A DNA stretch of 21,849 nucleotides, from IMG/VR virus record IMGVR_UViG_2693429728_000015, positions 1-21,849 of that record. One strand, 5' to 3'. Source of the DNA: a virus (lineage: Duplodnaviria > Heunggongvirae > Uroviricota > Caudoviricetes). Positions 208 through 18,571 of the stretch are shown one piece after another. The position numbers and the translations under genes are program-made. The notes under the pieces are model-generated. The model did not search any database, had not been told where the DNA came from, and saw only the letters and a list, made by a program, of their open reading frames with translations. Numbering within the stretch: position 1 is the stretch's first letter; each line of letters opens with the position of its first letter.

Positions 208-1926
208 ATGATTTTTAGGGATAGCTTGAGAGTATTACCTTATGGTCGAGTAGATAATGATTTCTTCCAGATAGAAGAAAGACGTTCATGGAATGCAGGG
301 CGATATTATTGGTCTAATAGAAGGATTTTTGGTTATATTGGAATTACTCAATCCAGTAATAAAGAGCTGAAAGATAAGTCGGGGAGAGAGGGATTCATAA
401 GAAACCAGGCTGCAAGAGAACTGAAAACTATTATATCTAATTTGTTAACTGAACTTGCTGATAGATTTTTTGGTTCACGTTCTGATGACCGTAAAGAGCT
501 TTTAGAACAAGTTAAGCGTGAAAAAGAGTTAAGAAAATCTGCTCAACAACAAGCTCGAAAATCAACACAAAAAAGTTTTTCAGAAGCTTTGAAGAATCAG
601 ACACCAGTTCTTGATGCTTCCTTGGAGGCTGTTAAAAGGCTGAAAACTAAGCTTGATAAAACTGATGGTTCGTTAGATTTAAACTATCTTAAAATTATAG
701 ACAGTGATCTTACAAACTTAGATGCGTTGCGCAGTGAAATTAAAACGCCTATCAAACCTCCAAAACTTGGAATGTATGAAGAGAAATATAGAGACTACAG
801 AGATAAATTTAATGAGTTCTCTGCGTATATTCTACAAATGAAGTTAGCAATTAATAAACTTGATTCTGAATTAAATAAACTTGAGCCTTCATTGTCAGCG
901 AAAAATCACCTTGAAAAAAATCAAGGTATTATTAATTCTAAACTAACTAAGTTTAATAACACGATAGAGGAGAAGATACATTCTCTTTTAAAAAAATGGG
1001 CCGATGAAATAAAGGTTGATCGAAGTGATTATTATGCTAAAACTATATCAGTTGTTGATTCAATAGATAATGATTCACAAATTGAAAATGTGTTTAATTT
1101 GCTCGATAGTTTATATGTTGAGTCAGTTGATACCCTAACTTTCAAATATCAATCAATAATAAAAGGTCTCGATGGATTATTTGAAGGTATAAACTTAGAT
1201 TCAGCATTCTCATTATCTGAAGAAGAACGCTCATATTTTGAAGAAAAAGCTAAAAGTTTAAACGCGCTTGCACAGTTAGGTATTAGTGTTGAGATAATAT
1301 CTCATGAACTTGAAGAAATGGATTCTATGGTAACCAGAGGACTAAACTCTCTTCCTACTTCTGTAAAAGAACACCCTGGTTTTTCATTGGCGTTAAATGC
1401 TCACAGATCGCTTACTCAACAAATACGTTTCTTATCACCTTTGAAAATATCAGGTTATCAATCCAGGCAGAGAATAACTGGAAAAAATATCATGGATTAT
1501 GTCCTGAAGTTCTTTGGGGAGCGTTTCGAACGGCAACGAATAACTATTGAATTTAGTGAAGAGTTTAAGCAAATCGCAATAACAGATATACCATCAAGGA
1601 TCTATCCTGTTTTTACTAATATTATCAACAATGCAATGTATTGGGTCAGTCTGTCAAATAATAGGCTCATAAAGATTGGTTTTGTGAATTCTTTGGTTAT
1701 CATAGCAAATTCTGGTCCGGCAATTGATACCGATGATATCCCGCGACTATTTGAACTATTTTATAGCAAAAGAGCAAATGGACATGGGGTAGGTCTGTAT
1801 CTATGTCGAGAAAACCTTGCTGTTGCACATCATAAAATATGGTATTCAGAACCTGATGAAGGCGATAACTATTTAATAAAAGATGGCGCTAATTTTGTGA
1901 TCCAGTTCAATGGAGTGGAGTTCTAA
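208..1926 (+). CDS. Histidine-kinase-like protein: coiled-coil-rich N-terminal region, HisKA-like H-box, C-terminal GHKL/HATPase_c domain
   Basis: 572-aa ORF. Translation shows an H-box-like 'ISHELEEMDS', an N-box 'NIINNAMYW', a G1-like 'ANSGPAIDTDD' and a G2 'GHGVGLYLCRENL'. No in-frame start between the stop at 79-81 and ATG 208. Region is AT-rich (about 30% GC in a sampled stretch). No hydrophobic segment seen, so probably cytoplasmic. The SD (AGGA) sits only 3 nt from the ATG, so the start is uncertain. Confidence 0.7.
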   Translation: MIFRDSLRVLPYGRVDNDFFQIEERRSWNAGRYYWSNRRIFGYIGITQSSNKELKDKSGREGFIRNQAARELKTIISNLLTELADRFFGSRSDDRKELLEQVKREKELRKSAQQQARKSTQKSFSEALKNQTPVLDASLEAVKRLKTKLDKTDGSLDLNYLKIIDSDLTNLDALRSEIKTPIKPPKLGMYEEKYRDYRDKFNEFSAYILQMKLAINKLDSELNKLEPSLSAKNHLEKNQGIINSKLTKFNNTIEEKIHSLLKKWADEIKVDRSDYYAKTISVVDSIDNDSQIENVFNLLDSLYVESVDTLTFKYQSIIKGLDGLFEGINLDSAFSLSEEERSYFEEKAKSLNALAQLGISVEIISHELEEMDSMVTRGLNSLPTSVKEHPGFSLALNAHRSLTQQIRFLSPLKISGYQSRQRITGKNIMDYVLKFFGERFERQRITIEFSEEFKQIAITDIPSRIYPVFTNIINNAMYWVSLSNNRLIKIGFVNSLVIIANSGPAIDTDDIPRLFELFYSKRANGHGVGLYLCRENLAVAHHKIWYSEPDEGDNYLIKDGANFVIQFNGVEF

Positions 1927-1927
1927 T

Positions 1928-3676
1928 ATGACAGTGGCAAATTATAATTCTCTTGTCCAGAAAACTTTCTGCGAAAATGCAATTCGTTCCGTTGTCATGA
2001 TTGATGACGATTTTCTGACGTATTCTGAATCAATCAGGGCGTTGAATAACGAAGTTGATTTAGACTACAACAAAATTGACTCATCTAAACGAGCCGCTAC
2101 TCTTGAGAGCTTTTTTCAATCTAAAAATATGATTTGTGATGTTGACAATGGTTCTGTTAATTTCGATGTGGATCGGATTAGAAAATCAGATCTTATTATT
2201 GTAGATTATCATCTTGATAATAATGCACCTGATAAAACACTTAAACTATTACAAGATTTGAAAGGCTCCGATCATTTAAATATGATTGTAATATATACTA
2301 GAGAGAATTTAGAAACGGTTTGGATGCAGATATCATCGACTCTCAAAGGTGCTCTGGATATCAACAGCTTGATCATTGACTACGATAATGAAGATGTCCA
2401 AAGTTATTGGGAAGACGTTGTATTACCGAACTTAAATGATAATGGTAATAAAGCTCTCACAAGAGATGAAACAATAGCCTATATTAAAGACAGTAAGCCT
2501 TGTAGAAGAATTAAAAGATTAATACATGATGATGCTGTGTTGGAGGATCAAAAGGATAAAAACTTCATTGCAAAAATGATTGCAGAATATGCTGTGTCTA
2601 GAAATGCAATTATTTCTAGCAACACATCTGGCAATGTCATTCGGGGTGATGAAAGCGGAGTAAAATGGATTCAATGTGGTAATATCTTTGTCTCCCTATT
2701 TCATAAGGTTCAAGATGATCATGAAAACGATGGAGATAGGATTTGGCAAACTCTCAATGATTCTCTCATTGAATGGAAACCATCTTATTATCAGTTAATA
2801 AAATCTGAAATTCAGAATGCAATCGAAGCTGAGGCTTTATCTTTTGTAAATCATTTGGCTAACGATCATTACGGTCAAGCTGCGTGGTTAAATGAGATAT
2901 TAAAATCAGACTCGCCTGATATTAGATGTAGAAATATTGACTTTGTATTTGGTAATTTATCAGAAGAGCTTTATCAAAGACTTAAAAATAATAATACGCT
3001 GGATGAATTTATCAAAAGTGTTTTTGATAGCTATTCAAATGAATACGCTAACAGCGGAGTTGCTGCATTGCTCCAATATTGCTCTTCAAAAATGGATCTG
3101 CCATCAAATAATGATACTTATCACGAAATGTATCATGCTTTAAATATGAATTTGTCTTCAAAGAATTTTGAAGATGGTCATATTTCTACTGGCACTATTT
3201 TCTTTGATACAGAGTCGAACAAATGGTATTTATGTGTATCTGCGGCATGTGATTTGGTTCCTACTCAGGGTAACGACCCTCACCATGTAAGATTAAGTCC
3301 GCACAGGCTCATTAAAGTTCTGGAGCTTTTTAACGCCAGTCAGAGTAAAGCATTGCCATTTGCTGAACATTCGAAATATATATATGTAATGCATAAAAAT
3401 CAAAGAAAATATCTCTCTATTTTCGAAGGGGATAAAACGCTTCCTGTTGTTGATTATATGGTGGTGTTGAATCATGGAACAACAGTTGATGGCGAAGAAA
3501 AAAATATTATTTCTGCCGTGTTTTTAAGTAATATGGATGGCAACGTGCAAAATGTTCCTGTCCGACTCAAACTTAAATCTCAACTGAGAACTGGTTATGC
3601 AGAAAGATATCAGGCTATAGCGTCTCAGTATAGCTCAAGGATTGGTGTGGATTATGTATCAATGATGCTACCATAA
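1928..3676 (+). CDS. Receiver (REC)-like N-terminal domain fused to a roughly 430-aa C-terminal domain of unknown function
   Basis: ORF track gives 1910-3676. The ATG at 1928 is preferred because GGAGTGGAG lies 7 nt upstream and it sits 1 nt after the upstream stop (translational coupling). N-terminus has REC-like landmarks: 'VVMIDDDF' (acidic pocket), 'DLIIVDYHL' (putative phospho-acceptor Asp), 'MIVIYT' (Thr) and a following Lys. I do not recognise the C-terminal region. Confidence 0.6.
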   Translation: MTVANYNSLVQKTFCENAIRSVVMIDDDFLTYSESIRALNNEVDLDYNKIDSSKRAATLESFFQSKNMICDVDNGSVNFDVDRIRKSDLIIVDYHLDNNAPDKTLKLLQDLKGSDHLNMIVIYTRENLETVWMQISSTLKGALDINSLIIDYDNEDVQSYWEDVVLPNLNDNGNKALTRDETIAYIKDSKPCRRIKRLIHDDAVLEDQKDKNFIAKMIAEYAVSRNAIISSNTSGNVIRGDESGVKWIQCGNIFVSLFHKVQDDHENDGDRIWQTLNDSLIEWKPSYYQLIKSEIQNAIEAEALSFVNHLANDHYGQAAWLNEILKSDSPDIRCRNIDFVFGNLSEELYQRLKNNNTLDEFIKSVFDSYSNEYANSGVAALLQYCSSKMDLPSNNDTYHEMYHALNMNLSSKNFEDGHISTGTIFFDTESNKWYLCVSAACDLVPTQGNDPHHVRLSPHRLIKVLELFNASQSKALPFAEHSKYIYVMHKNQRKYLSIFEGDKTLPVVDYMVVLNHGTTVDGEEKNIISAVFLSNMDGNVQNVPVRLKLKSQLRTGYAERYQAIASQYSSRIGVDYVSMMLP

Positions 3677-3974
3677 TTATTATATTTTAGGCGTGGTGAT
3701 TTTTTTTCGCCATGCCTATTTTATATTTATCATCACAATGATGTTGTTTATTTTTGTTTAAGTCTTCTAAGCTTCATGCATTCTAATGAGAATAATAATA
3801 GAGTTGTGCTGTATATAAAGCCAGAGTTAGTTAATAACTTTAAATTTAATGCTTCAGGATTTTCACTGAGAAAGTGAAAGGCATAAACTAAGTATACAGC
3901 TAAAGTAGCCGTTCCAATTGTTGGTCCAATATCGCCTTGATCATGAGGTTCAAGGTTTACATTGAACTTGAAGA

Positions 3975-4163
3975 TTAGCCATTCAAATCCCCAAGTAAAA
4001 AAACAACTAATATCATGGCTGCGAATAATTTCGCGATGTTATCTGCTGATGGATTCATCAGAACAGATTGTTTCTGAAAAAATTCACAAAGTGAGAGTCC
4101 GAAAAAAATAAAAAAAAGTGGTCTGGAACTAAATTTTTCAAAAACTTTGAATAGGGTTTCCAT
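3975..4163 (-). CDS. Small hydrophobic protein (two predicted TM helices), hypothetical
   Basis: 62-aa ORF with two hydrophobic stretches ('LFFIFFGLSLCEFF', 'LFAAMILVVFLLG') and GAAGG about 9 nt upstream of the ATG. Lies in the AT-rich spacer between the convergent cargo gene and the integrase. Short, so could be spurious. Confidence 0.3.
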   Translation of the reverse strand: METLFKVFEKFSSRPLFFIFFGLSLCEFFQKQSVLMNPSADNIAKLFAAMILVVFLLGDLNG

Positions 4164-5596: not shown

Positions 5597-5641
5597 TGGT
5601 GGAGCTGGCGGGAGTTGAACCCGCGTCCGAAATTCCTACAT
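5597..5641 (-). repeat. ssrA: 3'-terminal 45 nt of tmRNA (ssrA): T-arm plus acceptor ending CCA; att-site direct repeat of an ssrA-integrated element
   Basis: Reverse complement reads ATGTAGGAATTTCGGACGCGGGTTCAACTCCCGCCAGCTCCACCA, which I recognise as the 3' end of enterobacterial tmRNA. Sequence at higher coordinates (5642-5800) is AT-rich and unlike the tmRNA body, so this is a partial copy, not the gene. Confidence 0.75.
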
Positions 5642-5767
5642 ACTAATAATATATCTTTAAAATCAAAATATTCTATTATTTATCAATGTATTATGTTTAT
5701 GTGGTGTTAAGGGGTTTATATGGGTTTTAGTTCTCTGCCGCCAAAATGCAGCCAAAAAAATTGAATG

Positions 5768-5795
5768 GTAAAACGCCAGTTCGTTGAACTGGCGA
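5768..5795 (-). terminator. Rho-independent terminator after the ThyX-like gene
   Basis: Perfect 9-bp stem with 3-nt loop (cgccagttc-gtt-gaactggcg, 5775-5795), followed on the minus strand by TTTTACC. It sits 10 nt after the stop of the 5805-6572 CDS. Confidence 0.6.
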
Positions 5796-5804
5796 GATCT
5801 TGTC

Positions 5805-6572
5805 TTATTGTTTTATTATCTTAACGTGCGCCGTTCCTCCATTGACTTTTTCGAAATCTTGGAACAAGGCAGGGGCATCTTGAGTTACAATATCGTAAAG
5901 TTTTTCTGAAACTGTTCTCATTTCATAGTCACCCTGTATTGCTCCTCTCATTTCGAAGAAGTGTCGAATTGCGCGAGCATTTGCTGTGACGATTATTTTT
6001 GTCTCGGTTGCATTAGGCAATATAGAGCGAGAAGCGCTTCTTAGGGCCCGCATTTTTTCTTTTTTGTTCTCATACGATTGGTTTTCACGGATTTTTTTCA
6101 AGGATTGCTTATAAAAATCCAGACTACTTTCAATATGTTGGCACCATGACTTAAACAATTCTGGGTCATTTTTTACTTCTATAGGGGCTACGAATTCAGC
6201 ATCGGATTCATCATGATACTGTTGGGATAACTGGCTATATGAAAAACCAGCTCTATGCCGAACTAGCTGGTGTGTAAATGCACGAGATACCCCAGTAATT
6301 AAAAAGGTCCAGTTCAAATGTTCTAAGACACTTTCATGCCCTTGAATAATTAAATTGTTGATATATTGACTTGTAGTCCGTGGAGACTGCTTATCCTCTC
6401 CAAAAGACATATAACATAGCCTGCCAGCGGCCTCTACCAGAAGCTCAGCTTCGGTCGCCTGCCCTTTGCGAACCCATTGCAATGATGATGTGTTTAAAAA
6501 ATCATCAAAAACATTACTTTCAAATGAAGGGTGTGATATGCATTTTACTGATAAATCAGAGATTTTTATCAT
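5805..6572 (-). CDS. ThyX-like flavin-dependent thymidylate synthase homologue
   Basis: 255-aa ORF with 'GVSRAFTHQLVRHRAGFSYSQLSQQY', matching the ThyX signature (RHR ... SYSQ.SQ) and its surrounding conserved block. GGGAG lies upstream of the ATG. Starts 2 nt after the stop of the upstream Dcd-like gene (operon). AT-rich. Confidence 0.7.
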   Translation of the reverse strand: MIKISDLSVKCISHPSFESNVFDDFLNTSSLQWVRKGQATEAELLVEAAGRLCYMSFGEDKQSPRTTSQYINNLIIQGHESVLEHLNWTFLITGVSRAFTHQLVRHRAGFSYSQLSQQYHDESDAEFVAPIEVKNDPELFKSWCQHIESSLDFYKQSLKKIRENQSYENKKEKMRALRSASRSILPNATETKIIVTANARAIRHFFEMRGAIQGDYEMRTVSEKLYDIVTQDAPALFQDFEKVNGGTAHVKIIKQ

Positions 6573-6574
6573 TT

Positions 6575-7360
6575 TTACTCCCGTATAGCTTTTGGGGTGC
6601 TTACTTTAGCATCAACCTTTGGTTCGTTTGATTTAGCATTTTTTAGTAATTCAACGGTGCTTTTTAGGCTATTTATTTCATTTTGTTGAACTTTTATTGT
6701 TAATTCAAGATCTTTTGTACTACTGACATTACTGGATACTATTTGAAATAAGAAAGGAATTGCTAGGGTTATCAACGTTAGCATTAAGGCTGCTATCGCA
6801 ATTATAAAGCCAGTTTTTTTCGCAATGATTTTATTGATTTCTTTCGGAAGTCGTTTATCAAGTCCTGCAAAATCCTTTCCCATTCTAGAAAGTTGATCAT
6901 CATCCAATTTATTTACGATTTTTCCTTGGTAACCTTTAGTCGGTATTATTGTTTTAAATAATAACATTCGGGCTACTGCAGAATTTTGTGTCAATGAGAA
7001 TGGTTCTTTTGACATATTTACAAGATATATTGAAATTATGCCATTATATCCAGGGTCAATATGCCCTGGATTCGTCATGATAATTCCATTTTTTGATAGT
7101 GTGTTTCTTGGGAATATTACACCAGCTAAATTTTTTGCAAGTTGGAATTTTTCATTTAACTCTAATATTACAGTTTCCCCTGGCATCAGGATATGGTTGT
7201 TACGTGTTTTTTTATTGTCTTGACAGTCTGGTATATGTATTGTTTTTACAGAGAGATCAATGCTTGCAGATTGAACTTTAAATGTTCCATTTAATACCGT
7301 TAATGGATCAAAAATGTTGCCTCGCTGAATTTCATCATTGATTTCTATTTCAGACAGCAT
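6575..7360 (-). CDS. dCTP-deaminase/dUTPase-fold (Dcd-like) domain fused to a C-terminal transmembrane helix and a Lys-rich tail
   Basis: 261-aa ORF. 'PGHIDPGYNGIISIYLVNMSKEPFSLTQNSAVARMLLF' resembles the Dcd active-site block (HRIDPGWSG...). N-terminal region is also Dcd-like. Residues about 190-215 ('GFIIAIAALMLTLITLAIPFLFQIV') form a predicted TM helix. Starts 26 nt after the int stop. AT-rich. Confidence 0.6.
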   Translation of the reverse strand: MLSEIEINDEIQRGNIFDPLTVLNGTFKVQSASIDLSVKTIHIPDCQDNKKTRNNHILMPGETVILELNEKFQLAKNLAGVIFPRNTLSKNGIIMTNPGHIDPGYNGIISIYLVNMSKEPFSLTQNSAVARMLLFKTIIPTKGYQGKIVNKLDDDQLSRMGKDFAGLDKRLPKEINKIIAKKTGFIIAIAALMLTLITLAIPFLFQIVSSNVSSTKDLELTIKVQQNEINSLKSTVELLKNAKSNEPKVDAKVSTPKAIRE

Positions 7361-7386
7361 ATCAAAATCCTATATTTGTAAAGTTA

Positions 7387-8400
7387 TTATAAATTAGCCA
7401 GAGGGTTTTTTATTACTGCATCTTCAAGATGCTCTGGGGAAAAATGTGCATAAATCATAGTCATTTTTATATCAGAGTGGCCTAAAATATCTCGTAAAAC
7501 CAAAATATTACCACCATTCATCATAAAATGGCTGGCGAATGTATGGCGCAGAACGTGGGTGCATTGGCCCTCTGGTAACTCAATGTCAGCTCGCTTTACT
7601 GCTCGTTCAAAGGCTTTTCTGCAAGGAGTGAATAACTTCCCTCTGTTCTTAGGGAGTTCGTCATACAGATCCTGAGATATCGGCACGGTACGGTTTTTCT
7701 TGCCCTTAGTCTTGGTATAGGTGATCCGGTATTTCGATAACTGATGGCCCTGCAGATTTTCGGCTTCACTCCAGCGCGCGCCGGTGGCCAGGCATATTTT
7801 TGCAATTAAAAGTAGACTGGGGCTTTGAGAATCAGCACAGGCATCCAGCAGACGTTTAATTTCTTCCGGGGTCAGGAACGCCAGTTCACCCTCAGCAATT
7901 TTAAATGTTGGCAGCCCGGCAAGCGGATTGGGGGCTGACCAGTGGCCCAACTTTTTCAGTGTGCCAAAAACAGATGATAGGTTGCGCTGTTCAAGGTTTA
8001 CAGTGCGGGGCTTAACGGGCGACATAAGCGTGCCCTCTTCATTTCGCACTTCACCTTTTAGCCGCGCTTCTCGGTATTTAGTAAAATCACCGGCTGTCAG
8101 CTCTGAGGCGATGGGATCGCCTAGACCATTACAGATAATTCTAAGTTTCGCCATGAGGCGCTTGGGGTCTGCGAGTGTTTGACCATACAGGGAATACCAC
8201 TGCTCAATTAATTCTGATAGGTGTCGCCGATCTTCCTTTTCCCCCAGCCATGGCTTTTTGTTCACTTCTTCCATTGTGAAGCTTTCAAAAGCAATGGCTT
8301 CGCCTTTCGTAGCAAATTGCTTACGCACGCGCTTGCCATTGCGTCCATGGGGATAGCACTCGCACAACCATTTACCGTTTGGCTGTTTTCTGACAGTCAT
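7387..8400 (-). CDS. int: P2/186-family tyrosine integrase
   Basis: 337-aa ORF. N-terminus 'PNGKWLCECYPHGRNGKRVRKQFATKGEAIAFE' is P2-Int-like; C-terminus 'HVLRHTFASHFMMNGGNILVLRDILGHSDIKMTMIYAHF' carries the R-H-R-Y catalytic region. Starts 2 nt after the cI stop. Confidence 0.9.
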   Translation of the reverse strand: MTVRKQPNGKWLCECYPHGRNGKRVRKQFATKGEAIAFESFTMEEVNKKPWLGEKEDRRHLSELIEQWYSLYGQTLADPKRLMAKLRIICNGLGDPIASELTAGDFTKYREARLKGEVRNEEGTLMSPVKPRTVNLEQRNLSSVFGTLKKLGHWSAPNPLAGLPTFKIAEGELAFLTPEEIKRLLDACADSQSPSLLLIAKICLATGARWSEAENLQGHQLSKYRITYTKTKGKKNRTVPISQDLYDELPKNRGKLFTPCRKAFERAVKRADIELPEGQCTHVLRHTFASHFMMNGGNILVLRDILGHSDIKMTMIYAHFSPEHLEDAVIKNPLANL

Positions 8401-8402
8401 GT

Positions 8403-9035
8403 TTAGATACTCTTTATTACTTTGACTGCACGCCCAATAACTTCCACATCATCAGTAGAGCACTCGAAAGACGCTTCATCTTGATTTACTACAATCTTAT
8501 TGCCGGGAATCCGCATGATTTTTGCAACAATAATCATTCCATCAATATTGATAAGCCAGAATCCATTGCTGACCTGTTTAATTGATTTATCGATGAGATA
8601 ACAATTAGTAGGGGTTTCTAAGAACATCAATTCTTCATAATCTGCAGGTAATATGCTGTGGTCTAGGAAAATCTCTTCATCAATACTGAGTTGTCCATTC
8701 TCCAGGGTTCCTTTAGGAATAGCTGGAGTTATGAGTTTGGATAACGGTTTAATTGCTTGTTTGTTCTCATTATGAGAACTTTTCTCAGGCTCAGCTCCTC
8801 CTTTCATGCTTCCCTGTCCTGTAGCTAACCAAAGCAACGAAACACCGGTTTCTAGTGCGCACTGAATTATCCAGTCAGCAGGAAAGCTGTCACGTAACAC
8901 TCTGTTTGCCATAGTGCTTTTTGAGACATTCAGGTGCTCGCTTAATGCCTGCTTAGTTGTGAATCCATAAGCCTCAAGCAGCCTTCCAATAGCTGCCTTA
9001 CCTCCCGTATCGGAACCCATTCTGATGTTTAACAT
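8403..9035 (-). CDS. cI: CI-type immunity repressor (phage 186 CI-like)
   Basis: 210-aa ORF. N-terminal HTH region '...LEAYGF...CALETGVSLLWLATGQG' resembles 186 CI. Divergent from apl/cII and directly upstream of int, as in 186-like phages. Confidence 0.8.
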   Translation of the reverse strand: MLNIRMGSDTGGKAAIGRLLEAYGFTTKQALSEHLNVSKSTMANRVLRDSFPADWIIQCALETGVSLLWLATGQGSMKGGAEPEKSSHNENKQAIKPLSKLITPAIPKGTLENGQLSIDEEIFLDHSILPADYEELMFLETPTNCYLIDKSIKQVSNGFWLINIDGMIIVAKIMRIPGNKIVVNQDEASFECSTDDVEVIGRAVKVIKSI

Positions 9036-16062: not shown

Positions 16063-16674
16063 ATGGATTTAGTCTTTAAAGTTCTGGCTTCGTTGGGTGG
16101 GGTGTCTTTTGTTGCATCTGGCATATTTGTTTGGATCGGGAAAGTTTATTTAGAAAGATATAAGTCGCGGCTAAACAAAGATATTGCTGAATTTCAATCA
16201 CAACTGAGTGCAACTAATGAAAGAATAAAGGCTAAGTTAGACAATTCTGTTTATGTAACGAAAGCGTATTTTGATAAGGAGTTATCAGCATATAGTCTCA
16301 TTTGGAATTCGATGTTTGAAACCAGAGAAAGCGTGCTTAAGCTGAGGCCTGCGCTGGATCATGTTGACCCCAACGAACCATTTGAAGAGAGAAAATTTAG
16401 AAGGTTGAAAGTTTTTTCTGATGCATTTAACACTTTTGTTACAAGTGTTGAATCTAACAAACCGTTCATCTCACCAGAGGTTTATATAATCTTGGACCGT
16501 TTCCGGAAGGAATGCCTTTCAGAGTCAATATCGTTTAAGCATAGCGATCCAGAATTTGACGGGCAAAATTATTGGAAAGAGGCGGAGTTGAACCATACAA
16601 CCATCATCAAGCTTTTTGATGAGACGTGTGATGCAATTCGAGACAGGATGCACACATTAACTGTGGTTACGTAG
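16063..16674 (+). CDS. Membrane-anchored protein (single N-terminal TM helix), unknown function
   Basis: 203-aa ORF. Residues about 5-26 ('FKVLASLGGVSFVASGIFVWIG') are hydrophobic. GGTGGGGG upstream of the ATG. AT-rich. Confidence 0.65.
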   Translation: MDLVFKVLASLGGVSFVASGIFVWIGKVYLERYKSRLNKDIAEFQSQLSATNERIKAKLDNSVYVTKAYFDKELSAYSLIWNSMFETRESVLKLRPALDHVDPNEPFEERKFRRLKVFSDAFNTFVTSVESNKPFISPEVYIILDRFRKECLSESISFKHSDPEFDGQNYWKEAELNHTTIIKLFDETCDAIRDRMHTLTVVT

Positions 16675-16766
16675 GTTTCCAAAAAGTCTCGATGCCCGCT
16701 TTGGAGATTGTGCATGTCTATGCCGCATGAATCCGCATGATCGTTTGAGGATCGTTTTAGCTGAGG

Positions 16767-16792
16767 CCCGCCAGGAGTGGCGGGATTTTGCT
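16767..16792 (+). terminator. Hairpin plus T-rich tract (possible terminator or attenuator) between the membrane-protein and KAP genes
   Basis: CCCGCCA-ggag-TGGCGGG (16767-16784) followed by ATTTTGCTT, inside a GC-rich spacer that contrasts with the AT-rich flanking genes. Confidence 0.35.
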
Positions 16793-16918
16793 TATGTCAT
16801 GCAGGCGCATGAAAACCGCTACATAAAGCGGGCAGGCGTGGCGGGGATACGAGCGCGCGCTCATTACTTTTATAATTCTAGGGTTATAATACGGGGCTGT
16901 CTTTCTAGGAGAAAACAC

Positions 16919-18571
16919 ATGTCCTTAGAGTTTATCAAAGAACAGTTGTCAGATTTTATCTCATCTACAGAACCAGAAGTAATGGCTATACAGGGTGAAT
17001 GGGGAATTGGTAAAACCTATACTTGGAATACGTTCCTAAAAGATAATAAAGATAAGGTTGCATTTAATAGATATAGTTATGTCTCTCTTTTTGGTATAAA
17101 TTCACTAGATTCTTTAAAGTATTCTATTTTTGAGAATGCAATTACAAAGGAATATATTGGAAATAAACCTGATTTGGAGACAGCAACAACAAACGCAAGT
17201 GGACTTTTTGAATCATTTTCTCGAAAAGCAGCAGGTTTGTTAAAAGAAGTTCCTGTTGTAAAAAACTTCTCTACGACACTTGAAGCAATGTCATTTCTGA
17301 CCGTTTCTAAAATGATTGTAGTAATAGATGACTTAGAAAGGCGTGGCAAAAATTTAGATGTTAAAGATGTTTTAGGGCTAGTATCTCTATTAAAAGAGCA
17401 GAAGGATTGTAAGGTGGTTCTATTGCTTAACAATGGCACAGCTAGTATGGAGGATTATTCTACTTATAAAGAAAAGGTCATTGATAGAGATATCACTTAC
17501 AATCCAACACCAGAAGAATGCGCAGATATAGCCTATAAAGGTGATTCTCATGTTTATAACTTGTTAAGTAAATATTCCATTTCTTTAGGTATCAAGAATA
17601 TTCGAATCTTAAAAAAGATAGAACGTTTTTTCGTGTCCTTAATACCAAATATTATAGGTGATGTTGAGACAATTTCAAATGAAGTTGCGCATTCATTAAC
17701 TCTGTATTGTTGGAGCCATTACGGATTTTCTCCAGAGGGAGATGTGCCATCACTAGAATATATTAGGGGAGTGAGGAATATATATACTTATAATGACAAG
17801 GAAGAAGGCCATGAGAAAATCTGGCTTAATACCTTGCTTAAATATGGATATAGAAAAACGAATGATCTTGATGAGGTTCTTATTGATATGGTTAGATATG
17901 GCTATCTTGATAAGAGCAGTTTCCAAAGACAAATAAGCCTAAGGAATGAGGAGATTACGCGTGATAATAAACGAGGTTCCTTATCTGAGGCATGGCAGTT
18001 CTTTCATAATTCATTTGATGACAATCAAAATCAGGTTGTTGACAAGCTATATCAAGCGGTGGTTGATGGGATGAAGTATGTGACTCCAAGTGATTTAGAT
18101 AATGTTGTCGGACTATATAGGGATTTCGGAGAGAATGCTAAGGCGAGTGAATTGATTGAACAGTTTATTAATTATGGTAACGATGCTCTAAAGGAATATG
18201 TTCAATCTATTTATGTGAATGTTCATCCCGTAAGAGATACTGAGTTGTTGTCAAAAATTCAAGCCTATTCTAAGATTATAAATATTGATGGTTCAATATA
18301 TGATGTTCTTAAGAAATTATCAGGTCAGAATGGTTGGTCTGATAGACATGAGGAAATATTGGATGCTGCTTCAGTAGATGACTACTATCAATTATTTAAA
18401 AATGTCATTCTTGATGGTGGTGATTCAATAATAGCTACGGCGCTTAAATTCGGAAATTTTAGTAATGGTTCTGATAGAATGAATCGTATAGGGAAAAAGG
18501 CAAGGGATGCCTTGATAAGAATTGGAGATGAATCGGCGATTAATAAAATGCGTGTAAGGCGATTTTTGTGA
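16919..18571 (+). CDS. KAP-family P-loop NTPase
   Basis: ORF track starts at 16727. ATG 16919 is preferred because AGGAGAAAA lies upstream and two TATAAT boxes lie at 16871-16890. Walker A 'QGEWGIGKTYTW' (GxWGxGK[ST], KAP-type); Walker B 'MIVVIDDLERRGK'. No TM helix seen within it. AT-rich. Confidence 0.75.
   Translation: MSLEFIKEQLSDFISSTEPEVMAIQGEWGIGKTYTWNTFLKDNKDKVAFNRYSYVSLFGINSLDSLKYSIFENAITKEYIGNKPDLETATTNASGLFESFSRKAAGLLKEVPVVKNFSTTLEAMSFLTVSKMIVVIDDLERRGKNLDVKDVLGLVSLLKEQKDCKVVLLLNNGTASMEDYSTYKEKVIDRDITYNPTPEECADIAYKGDSHVYNLLSKYSISLGIKNIRILKKIERFFVSLIPNIIGDVETISNEVAHSLTLYCWSHYGFSPEGDVPSLEYIRGVRNIYTYNDKEEGHEKIWLNTLLKYGYRKTNDLDEVLIDMVRYGYLDKSSFQRQISLRNEEITRDNKRGSLSEAWQFFHNSFDDNQNQVVDKLYQAVVDGMKYVTPSDLDNVVGLYRDFGENAKASELIEQFINYGNDALKEYVQSIYVNVHPVRDTELLSKIQAYSKIINIDGSIYDVLKKLSGQNGWSDRHEEILDAASVDDYYQLFKNVILDGGDSIIATALKFGNFSNGSDRMNRIGKKARDALIRIGDESAINKMRVRRFL

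Follow-up and report, generated by a model that had tools for sequence, protein, structure and literature searches.

A Dcd-fold/ThyX gene pair at the integrase end of a 186-type prophage

We analyzed a stretch of 21,849 nucleotides (hereafter the window; positions 1 to 21,849 of the IMG/VR virus record IMGVR_UViG_2693429728_000015, Caudoviricetes) and focused on two adjacent minus-strand genes located next to the integrase gene (int) of a 186-type prophage of E. coli. The first one (gene 1, or the dcd-like gene) encodes a membrane protein with the fold common to dCTP deaminases (Dcd) and dUTPases (Dut), and the second one (gene 2, or thyX) a member of the flavin-dependent ThyX family. A preliminary description of this DNA, made from its letters, had proposed that the pair could be an undescribed anti-phage module made of a membrane-anchored, dCTP-deaminase-like protein and a ThyX-like partner. 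As presented in Table 1, the limits that it gave for both open reading frames (ORFs) were exact.

Table 1. Features of the gene pair and of its surroundings in the window.
Feature	Position	Strand	Basis
Gene 1, Dcd/dUTPase-fold membrane protein, 261 aa	6575..7360	-	ORF, Pfam, AlphaFold model
Gene 2, ThyX-family flavin-dependent methylase, 255 aa	5805..6572	-	ORF, Pfam, TIGR02170
Probable intrinsic terminator of the operon	5774..5794	-	9-bp GC-rich hairpin + UUUU
Prophage att core, copy of the 3' end of ssrA (tmRNA gene); prophage boundary	5597..5645	.	ssrA identity
186/P2-type tyrosine integrase, directly upstream of gene 1 and co-oriented	7387..8400	-	ORF, family match
186-type CI repressor, first gene of the co-oriented block	8403..9035	-	ORF, family match

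The genes cI, int, dcd-like and thyX share one orientation, with 2, 26 and 2 nt between successive genes. On the minus strand, the 26 nt between the int stop codon and the ATG of gene 1 include an AGGA sequence, and the ATG of thyX lies 2 nt past the TAA of the dcd-like gene. A promoter scan of the minus strand did not detect any sigma-70-like site in the gap between int and gene 1; we therefore infer a co-transcription with cI and int, and the pair probably rides on the lysogenic transcript of these two genes. As for the terminator of its own that had been attributed to the pair, folding revealed a perfect 9-bp hairpin followed by UUUU, 10 nt past the thyX stop codon (z = -2.1), which a consensus terminator scan had missed. 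The GC content is 0.49 in int, about 0.32 in the Dcd-like gene and 0.40 in thyX. The earlier view of the pair as acquired cargo at the prophage edge is supported.

On the other side of the pair, positions 5597-5641 (45 nt) match exactly the annotated 3' end of ssrA in a sister E. coli genome (L001), and the identity spans 49 nt in the comparison with a Klebsiella locus. Consequently, the prophage, of the 186 type, is inserted in ssrA, and the pair occupies the interval that separates int from the att core. A direct-repeat search inside the window did not find a second att copy, the prophage extending past the window end, and ARAGORN did not find any tmRNA in the window.

Gene 1 is a membrane-anchored Dcd/dUTPase-fold protein without the deaminase glutamate

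Residues ~30-150 of gene 1 matched the Pfam families DCD (PF22769, 5.9e-15) and dUTPase (PF00692, 1e-12), and the family profile aligned residues 1-154, a stretch that takes in the Dcd-type N-terminus, with the structures 4xjc and 2qxx (E 8.8e-17). In the AlphaFold model, the N-terminal domain displayed a pLDDT >90. Its top Foldseek matches were bifunctional dCTP deaminase-dUTPases (4xjc, E 3.5e-12), followed by archaeal dUTPases with a Dcd fold (8y1w, 9ln0, 2zdc). The Dcd fold announced for gene 1 was thus found again by profile and by structure; the modelled domain has a trimeric-dUTPase-like fold with a Dcd N-terminal segment, the trimer itself being predicted.

Four parts can be distinguished in the protein: the N-terminal domain (~1-155), a KDFAxxxxR linker (~162-170), a transmembrane (TM) helix (186-204) and a coiled-coil tail (205-261). 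From residue 154 onward, the model is a single long helix. Residues 186-204 are strongly hydrophobic, so the C-terminal TM anchor noticed in the preliminary description is real; four Lys/Arg residues precede this helix and one follows it, before a helical tail of ~57 aa. Given this charge bias, the enzyme-like domain is expected to be cytoplasmic, and the coiled-coil tail would be periplasmic, that is, outside the membrane. A homologous protein of 611 aa (P0303) was considered as a fusion form of gene 1 and rejected: its N-terminal extension is of low complexity and looks like an over-extended ORF.

The segment TNPGH(I/V)DPG(Y/F)xG (positions 96-107 of gene 1) is invariant in the family. Within GHIDPGYNG (99-107), the residues D102, P103, G104 and G107 do not vary, and position 105 is a Tyr in 149 and a Phe in 32 of the 181 family members. 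Gene 1 thus possesses the motif III of trimeric dUTPases (G-x-I-D-x-G-Y-x-G), with its catalytic Asp and its sugar-stacking aromatic residue. The string HIDPGYNG had been taken for a Dcd catalytic block; it corresponds to this motif III, which Dcd and dUTPases share. The catalytic Glu of Dcd (ITLELxN; E138 in E. coli Dcd), for its part, aligns to Tyr112 of gene 1 (IISIYLVN) in every alignment to a solved Dcd. Across the 181 motif-bearing members, this position holds Thr (125), Cys (26), Tyr (22), Ala (5), Val (2) or Ser (1), and never Glu or Asp. Dcd enzymes mutated at the catalytic Glu are inactive. Among the Foldseek matches of gene 1, four PDB entries (1xs4, 2j4q, 2hxd and 3gf0) carry an Ala or a Gln in place of this Glu. 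In addition, gene 1 scored 56.2 bits against the dCTP deaminase equivalog TIGR02274, below the cutoff of 92.8. Since the deaminase Glu is absent in 181/181 members, the family is not a canonical dCTP deaminase, and the deaminase identity first given to gene 1 is not supported, a missing Dcd catalytic residue being what the preliminary description itself had named as decisive.

One could still imagine gene 1 as a true dCTP deaminase, or as a bifunctional deaminase-dUTPase, which depletes dCTP on infection while ThyX turns dUMP into dTMP. Such a scheme would agree with the bifunctional enzymes found as top sequence and structure matches, with dUMP as the substrate of ThyX and with the known anti-phage dCTP deaminase that occupies the same slot in a sister phage. 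We consider it very unlikely in view of the substitution of the Glu throughout the family, the score under the TIGR02274 cutoff and the absence of a match of either protein to the anti-phage dCTP deaminase model NF041025; moreover, it leaves the invariant Arg-to-Gln change of ThyX (see below) unexplained.

The dUTPase motifs are also modified. Motif II, (P/G)RS(S/G), is altered to (R/K/P)N(S/T)LSK in the gene 1 family, the Gln of motif IV (R-x-A-Q) is replaced by Arg, Thr or Ser, and the Gly-rich, P-loop-like motif V is absent, the C-terminus being made of the linker, the TM helix and the coiled coil. These three elements and the N(S/T)LSK segment are themselves conserved in the family. Scores against the NCBIfam dut equivalogs were 36-46 bits, for cutoffs of 102-130. 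With motifs II, IV and V non-canonical, hydrolysis by gene 1 is therefore a proposal rather than an assignment. The most plausible view of the domain is that it derives from the Dcd:Dut lineage and binds nucleotides, possibly as a pyrophosphatase, and a dNTP pyrophosphatase or a nucleotide sensor is more likely than a dCTP deaminase.

Gene 2 belongs to a ThyX clade with an invariant Arg-to-Gln change

Gene 2 matched the Pfam family Thy1 (PF02511, 2.6e-48) and the ThyX of Mycobacterium tuberculosis (Mtb; 7e-42), and reached 154.8 bits against TIGR02170 (thyX), above the cutoff of 87.9. The ThyX motif RHR(X)7-8S is present as RHRAGFSYSQLS, one residue longer than the Mtb sequence RHRHFSYSQLS. 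When 47 partner ThyX proteins were aligned to Mtb ThyX, we observed a conservation of the FAD and folate residues, of the RHR motif and of Ser105, Tyr108, Arg87, Arg172 and Arg199; the equivalents of Mtb R95 and His69 are also kept in the clade. By contrast, the equivalent of Mtb R107 (R90 in Thermotoga maritima) is a Gln in 47/47 partners and in 120/120 best database matches of the window ThyX (167/167), these 120 matches all reading SQLSQQY. From the complete set of dUMP-contacting Arg residues (Mtb R87, R95, R107, R172 and R199), only R107 is missing. The clade also has specific, invariant Trp residues at Mtb positions 78 and 132. The ThyX-like assignment initially given to gene 2 consequently holds for the family; it does not hold for an ordinary ThyX, the Arg that contacts O4 being always a Gln.

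In Mtb ThyX, Arg107 bonds the C4=O of the uracil and one phosphate oxygen, and Arg199 reads N3 and O2 (PMC9571937, PMC12004180). In the T. maritima enzyme, the equivalent residue R90 has been presented as conserved, and an R90A substitution slows the dUMP-dependent step (PMC8316439, PMC11940539). Judging from the alignments, the residue that recognizes position 4 of the base has been lost throughout the gene 2 clade, the other active-site residues being kept. This invariant change suggests an altered base preference or an altered catalysis.

The two genes form a conserved and widely distributed pair

A pattern scan with one genome per species returned 51 loci, which came from Pseudomonas, Neiella, Acidobacteriota, Mycobacterium, Solirubrobacterales, Rhizobiales and other Alphaproteobacteria, Nostoc, Verrucomicrobia, Myxococcales and others, and the pair occurs in at least 8 phyla. 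An exhaustive profile search for the gene 1 family detected at least 480 clusters at 50% identity (E <= 1e-30); among the 150 cluster matches listed, nearly all were full-length (220-360 aa). Among the complete E. coli genomes, 2/5426 carry the pair.

ThyX is encoded immediately downstream of gene 1, on the same strand, at 39 of 44 loci, and the two ORFs overlap at 25 of them, mostly by 4 bp. A ThyX was found at every locus where the contig extent permits: the remaining loci that lack it stop at a contig edge, and an apparent exception (L058) was discarded, the Dcd-like gene there being a truncated fragment. Reciprocally, a look-up from three ThyX proteins of the SQQY type found a Dcd-TM gene adjacent each time. 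The pair is a tightly coupled and horizontally mobile operon.

A four-gene variant was observed at six Acidobacteriota loci (L012, L015, L017, L019, L020 and L030), with a NUDIX-WGR protein of ~255 aa (PADLOC candidate PDC-S07) and a protein of 306-353 aa that matches MazG weakly in 3/6 copies. At three of the variant loci, thyX is found at a distance of 2-3 kb and runs in the opposite direction. By their domains, the NUDIX-WGR and MazG-like proteins would be two more putative NTP pyrophosphatase folds.

The int-att interval holds variable cargo in sister prophages

An int with 80-92% identity to that of the window is present in about 201 E. coli genomes, and 11 of these relatives (loci L078-L088) were sampled for the cargo of the corresponding slot (window positions 5646-7386). 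The slot was occupied in 11/11 relatives, by ten different cargoes. One cargo is GapS1 (NF047931, 3e-128) and another is the anti-phage dCTP deaminase (NF041025, 8e-127; PADLOC dCTPase, 4e-145). The eight others, of one or two genes each, gave no Pfam or NCBIfam match and a single weak PADLOC match among them; no function could be assigned to them by family (WP_001083625; WP_096851621; WP_000344474; WP_089624414 with WP_073508497; WP_001429732; WP_021552396 with WP_021552397; WP_077696579; WP_032320872). Because this variable cargo includes known defense genes, the slot is a swap site for defense genes and not an empty junction, and the statement that int normally abuts att proved wrong for the sampled relatives of this lineage.

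An identical cI-int-pair arrangement was found in Klebsiella and in seven IMG/VR proviral contigs. In the comparison of IMG/VR contigs with the window (loci L091-L095, window positions 5805-8400), identities were ~92% for int, 77-80% for ThyX and 50-65% for the Dcd-TM protein. This faster divergence of gene 1 than of ThyX, beside an int that is 92% identical, may reflect diversifying selection or an exchange of alleles.

The phage-encoded setting could evoke a nucleotide-metabolism module serving the lytic replication of the phage itself, as phages often carry ThyX or dUTPase genes and the pair lies inside a prophage. We give hardly any credence to this explanation: the pair is co-oriented with cI and int at the lysogenic end and not with the replication genes, few sister prophages have it, it also occurs without any phage around, and it was not detected in any of 50,697 sequenced phage records.

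Abortive infection offers another scheme, in which the Dcd-like protein, as a trimer, would sense a nucleotide without acting as an enzyme; once a ligand is bound, the TM and coiled-coil segments would permeabilize the membrane, and ThyX would make or remove this ligand. The fast divergence of gene 1 would be expected of a phage-facing part. The family-wide presence of the TM helix, the coiled coil and the KDFA..R linker would suit such a sensor-effector, as would catalytic motifs that degenerate around an invariant base/sugar pocket motif. Nevertheless, one TM helix per chain makes a minimal effector, the PADLOC scan revealed no similarity to known pore-forming effectors, and the invariant Asp and His of TNPGHIDPG suggest a chemistry beyond binding. 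On balance, this explanation seems unlikely to us.

The pair resides in other mobile elements and beside defense genes

Outside the 186-type prophages, the pair was found in a P2-like prophage (Pantoea) and in a P4-like island (Brenneria, L059). In a marine integrative element known from metagenome contigs (L068-L071), it comes right after a P4-type int; the element encodes a GPA-type replication protein, and its flanks encode a PLD-DEAD-helicase-DUF3427 protein, a NERD protein and an AAA_23/MC2/CTD6 trio, so that it looks like a compact defense island. The pair was also located at the border of an integrative and conjugative element and, elsewhere, beside a cluster of GmrSD, AAA_15-DUF3696 and restriction-modification genes. 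In P. aeruginosa, it has a DEAD/UvrD giant helicase on one side and an nSTAND protein on the other. In 26 further genomes, the neighbors comprised several PADLOC families and included a Schlafen-type helicase/PDC-S41, MzaA, HmaB/C, AbiO and a methyl-directed restriction endonuclease.

In the Brenneria island, a Peptidase_M78 protein and a 'Beta_protein' (PF14350) gene are located directly upstream of the pair (L059, 7145-8786). A HipA-type kinase module lies downstream and, with the upstream genes, constitutes further possible defense cargo.

The genomic settings also bear on a purely metabolic explanation, according to which the lysogen would gain from the pair a second, folate-sparing route to dUTP clean-up and dTMP synthesis, for instance under thymine or folate stress or antifolates, without any role in defense. 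ThyX scores above its equivalog cutoff with the FAD, folate and most dUMP residues conserved, some loci lie amid housekeeping genes, and the acidobacterial clusters resemble sets of 'house-cleaning' NTP pyrophosphatases. We regard this explanation as rather doubtful, since it accounts neither for the membrane anchor, the strict pairing and the invariant loss of the O4-reading Arg, nor for the extreme patchiness in E. coli and the residence in a slot where defense genes are swapped.

Comparison with known systems

Bifunctional Dcd:Dut enzymes (4xjc from B. halodurans, 2qxx/2qlp from M. tuberculosis, 1ogh from M. jannaschii) share with gene 1 the fold, including the N-terminal MLLSD...IQPSSIDL, and the motif III GxIDPG(F/Y)xG. 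Unlike these enzymes, gene 1 has no catalytic Glu, (R/K/P)N(S/T)LSK in place of RSSxxR, a family-specific invariant TNPGH and an added C-terminal extension (linker, TM helix and coiled coil), and it is always paired with a ThyX. The archaeal Dcd-fold dUTPases (8y1w from Thermococcus pacificus, 9ln0/9ln3 from P45, 2zdc from Sulfolobus tokodaii), with a TM-score to the target of 0.71-0.79, are annotated as plain dUTPases and provide a precedent for Dcd folds that hydrolyze rather than deaminate; in contrast to gene 1, they are soluble, housekeeping proteins of ~150 aa. As for gene 2, canonical ThyX proteins (3gwc from Mtb, 1kq4 = TM0449 from T. maritima) have in common with it RHR...S, the Tyr, His69 and R87/R172/R199, and differ from it by the Gln at Arg107/R90, the one-residue insertion after RHR, the invariant Trp 78/132 and its location on mobile elements, in E. 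coli among other organisms.

The anti-phage dCTP deaminase (NF041025, 'dCTPase' in PADLOC) targets the pyrimidine dNTP pool, as proposed for the pair, and lies in the same int-att slot in a sister prophage. Unlike the pair, it is a single gene of 577 aa with a separate NCBIfam model and a weak ComEB match. Neither protein of the pair matches NF041025 in NCBIfam or dCTPase in PADLOC, and no PADLOC match was obtained at E <= 1. Phage T4 encodes a dCTPase/dUTPase (gp56) and a dCMP hydroxymethylase (gp42); the product of a dNTP pyrophosphatase is thereby passed to an enzyme that modifies C5 and belongs to a thymidylate-synthase family. This two-step logic is like that proposed for the pair, while gp42 is of the ThyA type, serves phage DNA modification and has no sequence relation to gene 2.

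In RefSeq, the two proteins are named 'dCTP deaminase domain-containing protein' and 'FAD-dependent thymidylate synthase'. Our literature search found no paper on the pair and none tying a ThyX or a Dcd-fold protein to defense, in agreement with the earlier impression of an undescribed pair; a paper on metagenomic selection mentioned none of its domains. The nearest published case, DefensePredictor DS-4, is a validated E. coli defense system with a thymidylate-synthase-family enzyme and other nucleotide-modifying enzymes (PMC13092281). DS-4 combines ThyA-type (PF00303), adenylate-kinase-like, DNA base hypermodification and TIR proteins, with no ThyX or Dcd fold, and the accessions of the pair were not found in the DS-4 tables available to us; we therefore rejected DS-4 as the system of the pair. 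Nucleotide-pool defense is known as a kind, and the novelty, so far as the literature search showed, would lie in the presence of these two enzyme folds in defense.

Proposed function of the pair

We favor the reading that the pair is an autonomous mobile cassette for anti-phage defense acting on pyrimidine deoxynucleotides, with a probability of about 0.5, the mechanism being inferred. A role in defense had already been proposed for it, and remains the best-supported reading, the slot holding GapS1 and the anti-phage dCTP deaminase in relatives. As the pair is cargo at the end of the lysogenic operon cI-int-dcd-like-thyX, lysogens are expected to express it. Gene 1 would place a trimeric Dcd/dUTPase-fold domain on the inner face of the membrane, held by its C-terminal TM anchor and prolonged by a periplasmic coiled coil. 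The nucleotide pocket being kept (Asp and Tyr of motif III, Ser/Thr-Lys phosphate motif) without the deaminase Glu, gene 1 would bind a pyrimidine dNTP (dCTP or dUTP) and probably hydrolyze it to the dNMP. The translationally coupled ThyX-type flavoenzyme encoded by gene 2 would then methylate this dNMP at C5, and the pyrimidine dNTP pool needed for phage replication would be drained or re-routed.

A particular form of the favored reading is that the pair associates a membrane-tethered dCTP pyrophosphatase with the first ThyX-family cytosine C5-methylase, converting dCMP into 5-methyl-dCMP as a defense pathway. This cytosine route is attractive because of the two active-site changes, and it mirrors T4 gp56/gp42; it is unproven, and we hold it as speculative and improbable in this precise form. 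The kept Arg199 would donate hydrogen bonds to N3 and O2 of the cytosine, and the Gln at the Arg107 position would accept one from the 4-amino group, a change that can be likened to the Asn-to-Asp switch between ThyA and the T4 dCMP hydroxymethylase. If this route is true, dCTP would be locked in a dead-end pool or, alternatively, phage dNMP kinases would phosphorylate the product, and the m5C entering phage DNA would expose it to methyl-dependent restriction.

Several points weigh against a defense cassette of this kind. The argument for defense comes from the genomic context, the residence of the pair in variable mobile-element hotspots or beside defense genes being a raw observation; the substrates and the role of the membrane anchor are likewise deductions. 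Some loci are bare two-gene insertions amid housekeeping genes (Morganella, Shewanella, Pseudoalteromonas). Neither protein is covered by a model in PADLOC 2.0.0, and the searches of the 50,697 sequenced phage records and of the PLSDB plasmids returned only ordinary dUTPase/Dcd matches, the family being absent from both. Hydrolysis by gene 1 has itself to reckon with the altered RSS phosphate motif, the absent motif V and the scores below the dUTPase equivalog cutoffs. Finally, E. coli has its own ThyA. With dUTP and dUMP as substrates, the pathway would duplicate the host Dut and ThyA, with no obvious harm to a phage.

Other loci of the window

Two further regions of the window were recorded. 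Beyond the ssrA repeat, an island with a P4-type integrase encodes, on the plus strand (208-3676), a 572-aa protein with HEF_HK and HATPase_c domains, whose gene overlaps that of a 588-aa Response_reg_2 protein; neither protein gave a PADLOC match, and the GC content is ~0.32 at 3500-4100, near these genes. Inside the prophage, positions 16063-18571 (plus strand) form a second candidate defense locus, with a 203-aa protein without family match followed by a 614-aa KAP-family P-loop NTPase that matches the PADLOC candidate PDC-S49 (4e-27). This locus lies just upstream of the portal gene, where the sister prophages L001 and L002 are unalignable with the window and have an AAA-family ATPase instead.

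Significance for nucleotide-pool defense and for the ThyX family

Most cargoes of the int-att slot in 186-like prophages integrated at ssrA match no known family, so that this slot readily offers further defense candidates. The active-site changes observed family-wide in both proteins of the pair imply a new chemistry, with a Dcd fold that does not deaminate and a ThyX without its uracil-O4 reader. ThyX being an antibacterial drug target, a natural clade with an altered substrate recognition is of enzymological interest. If the pair protects its hosts, a widespread system, counting at least 480 clusters (50% identity) and present in 8 or more phyla, would join the small group of defenses that act on the nucleotide pool.

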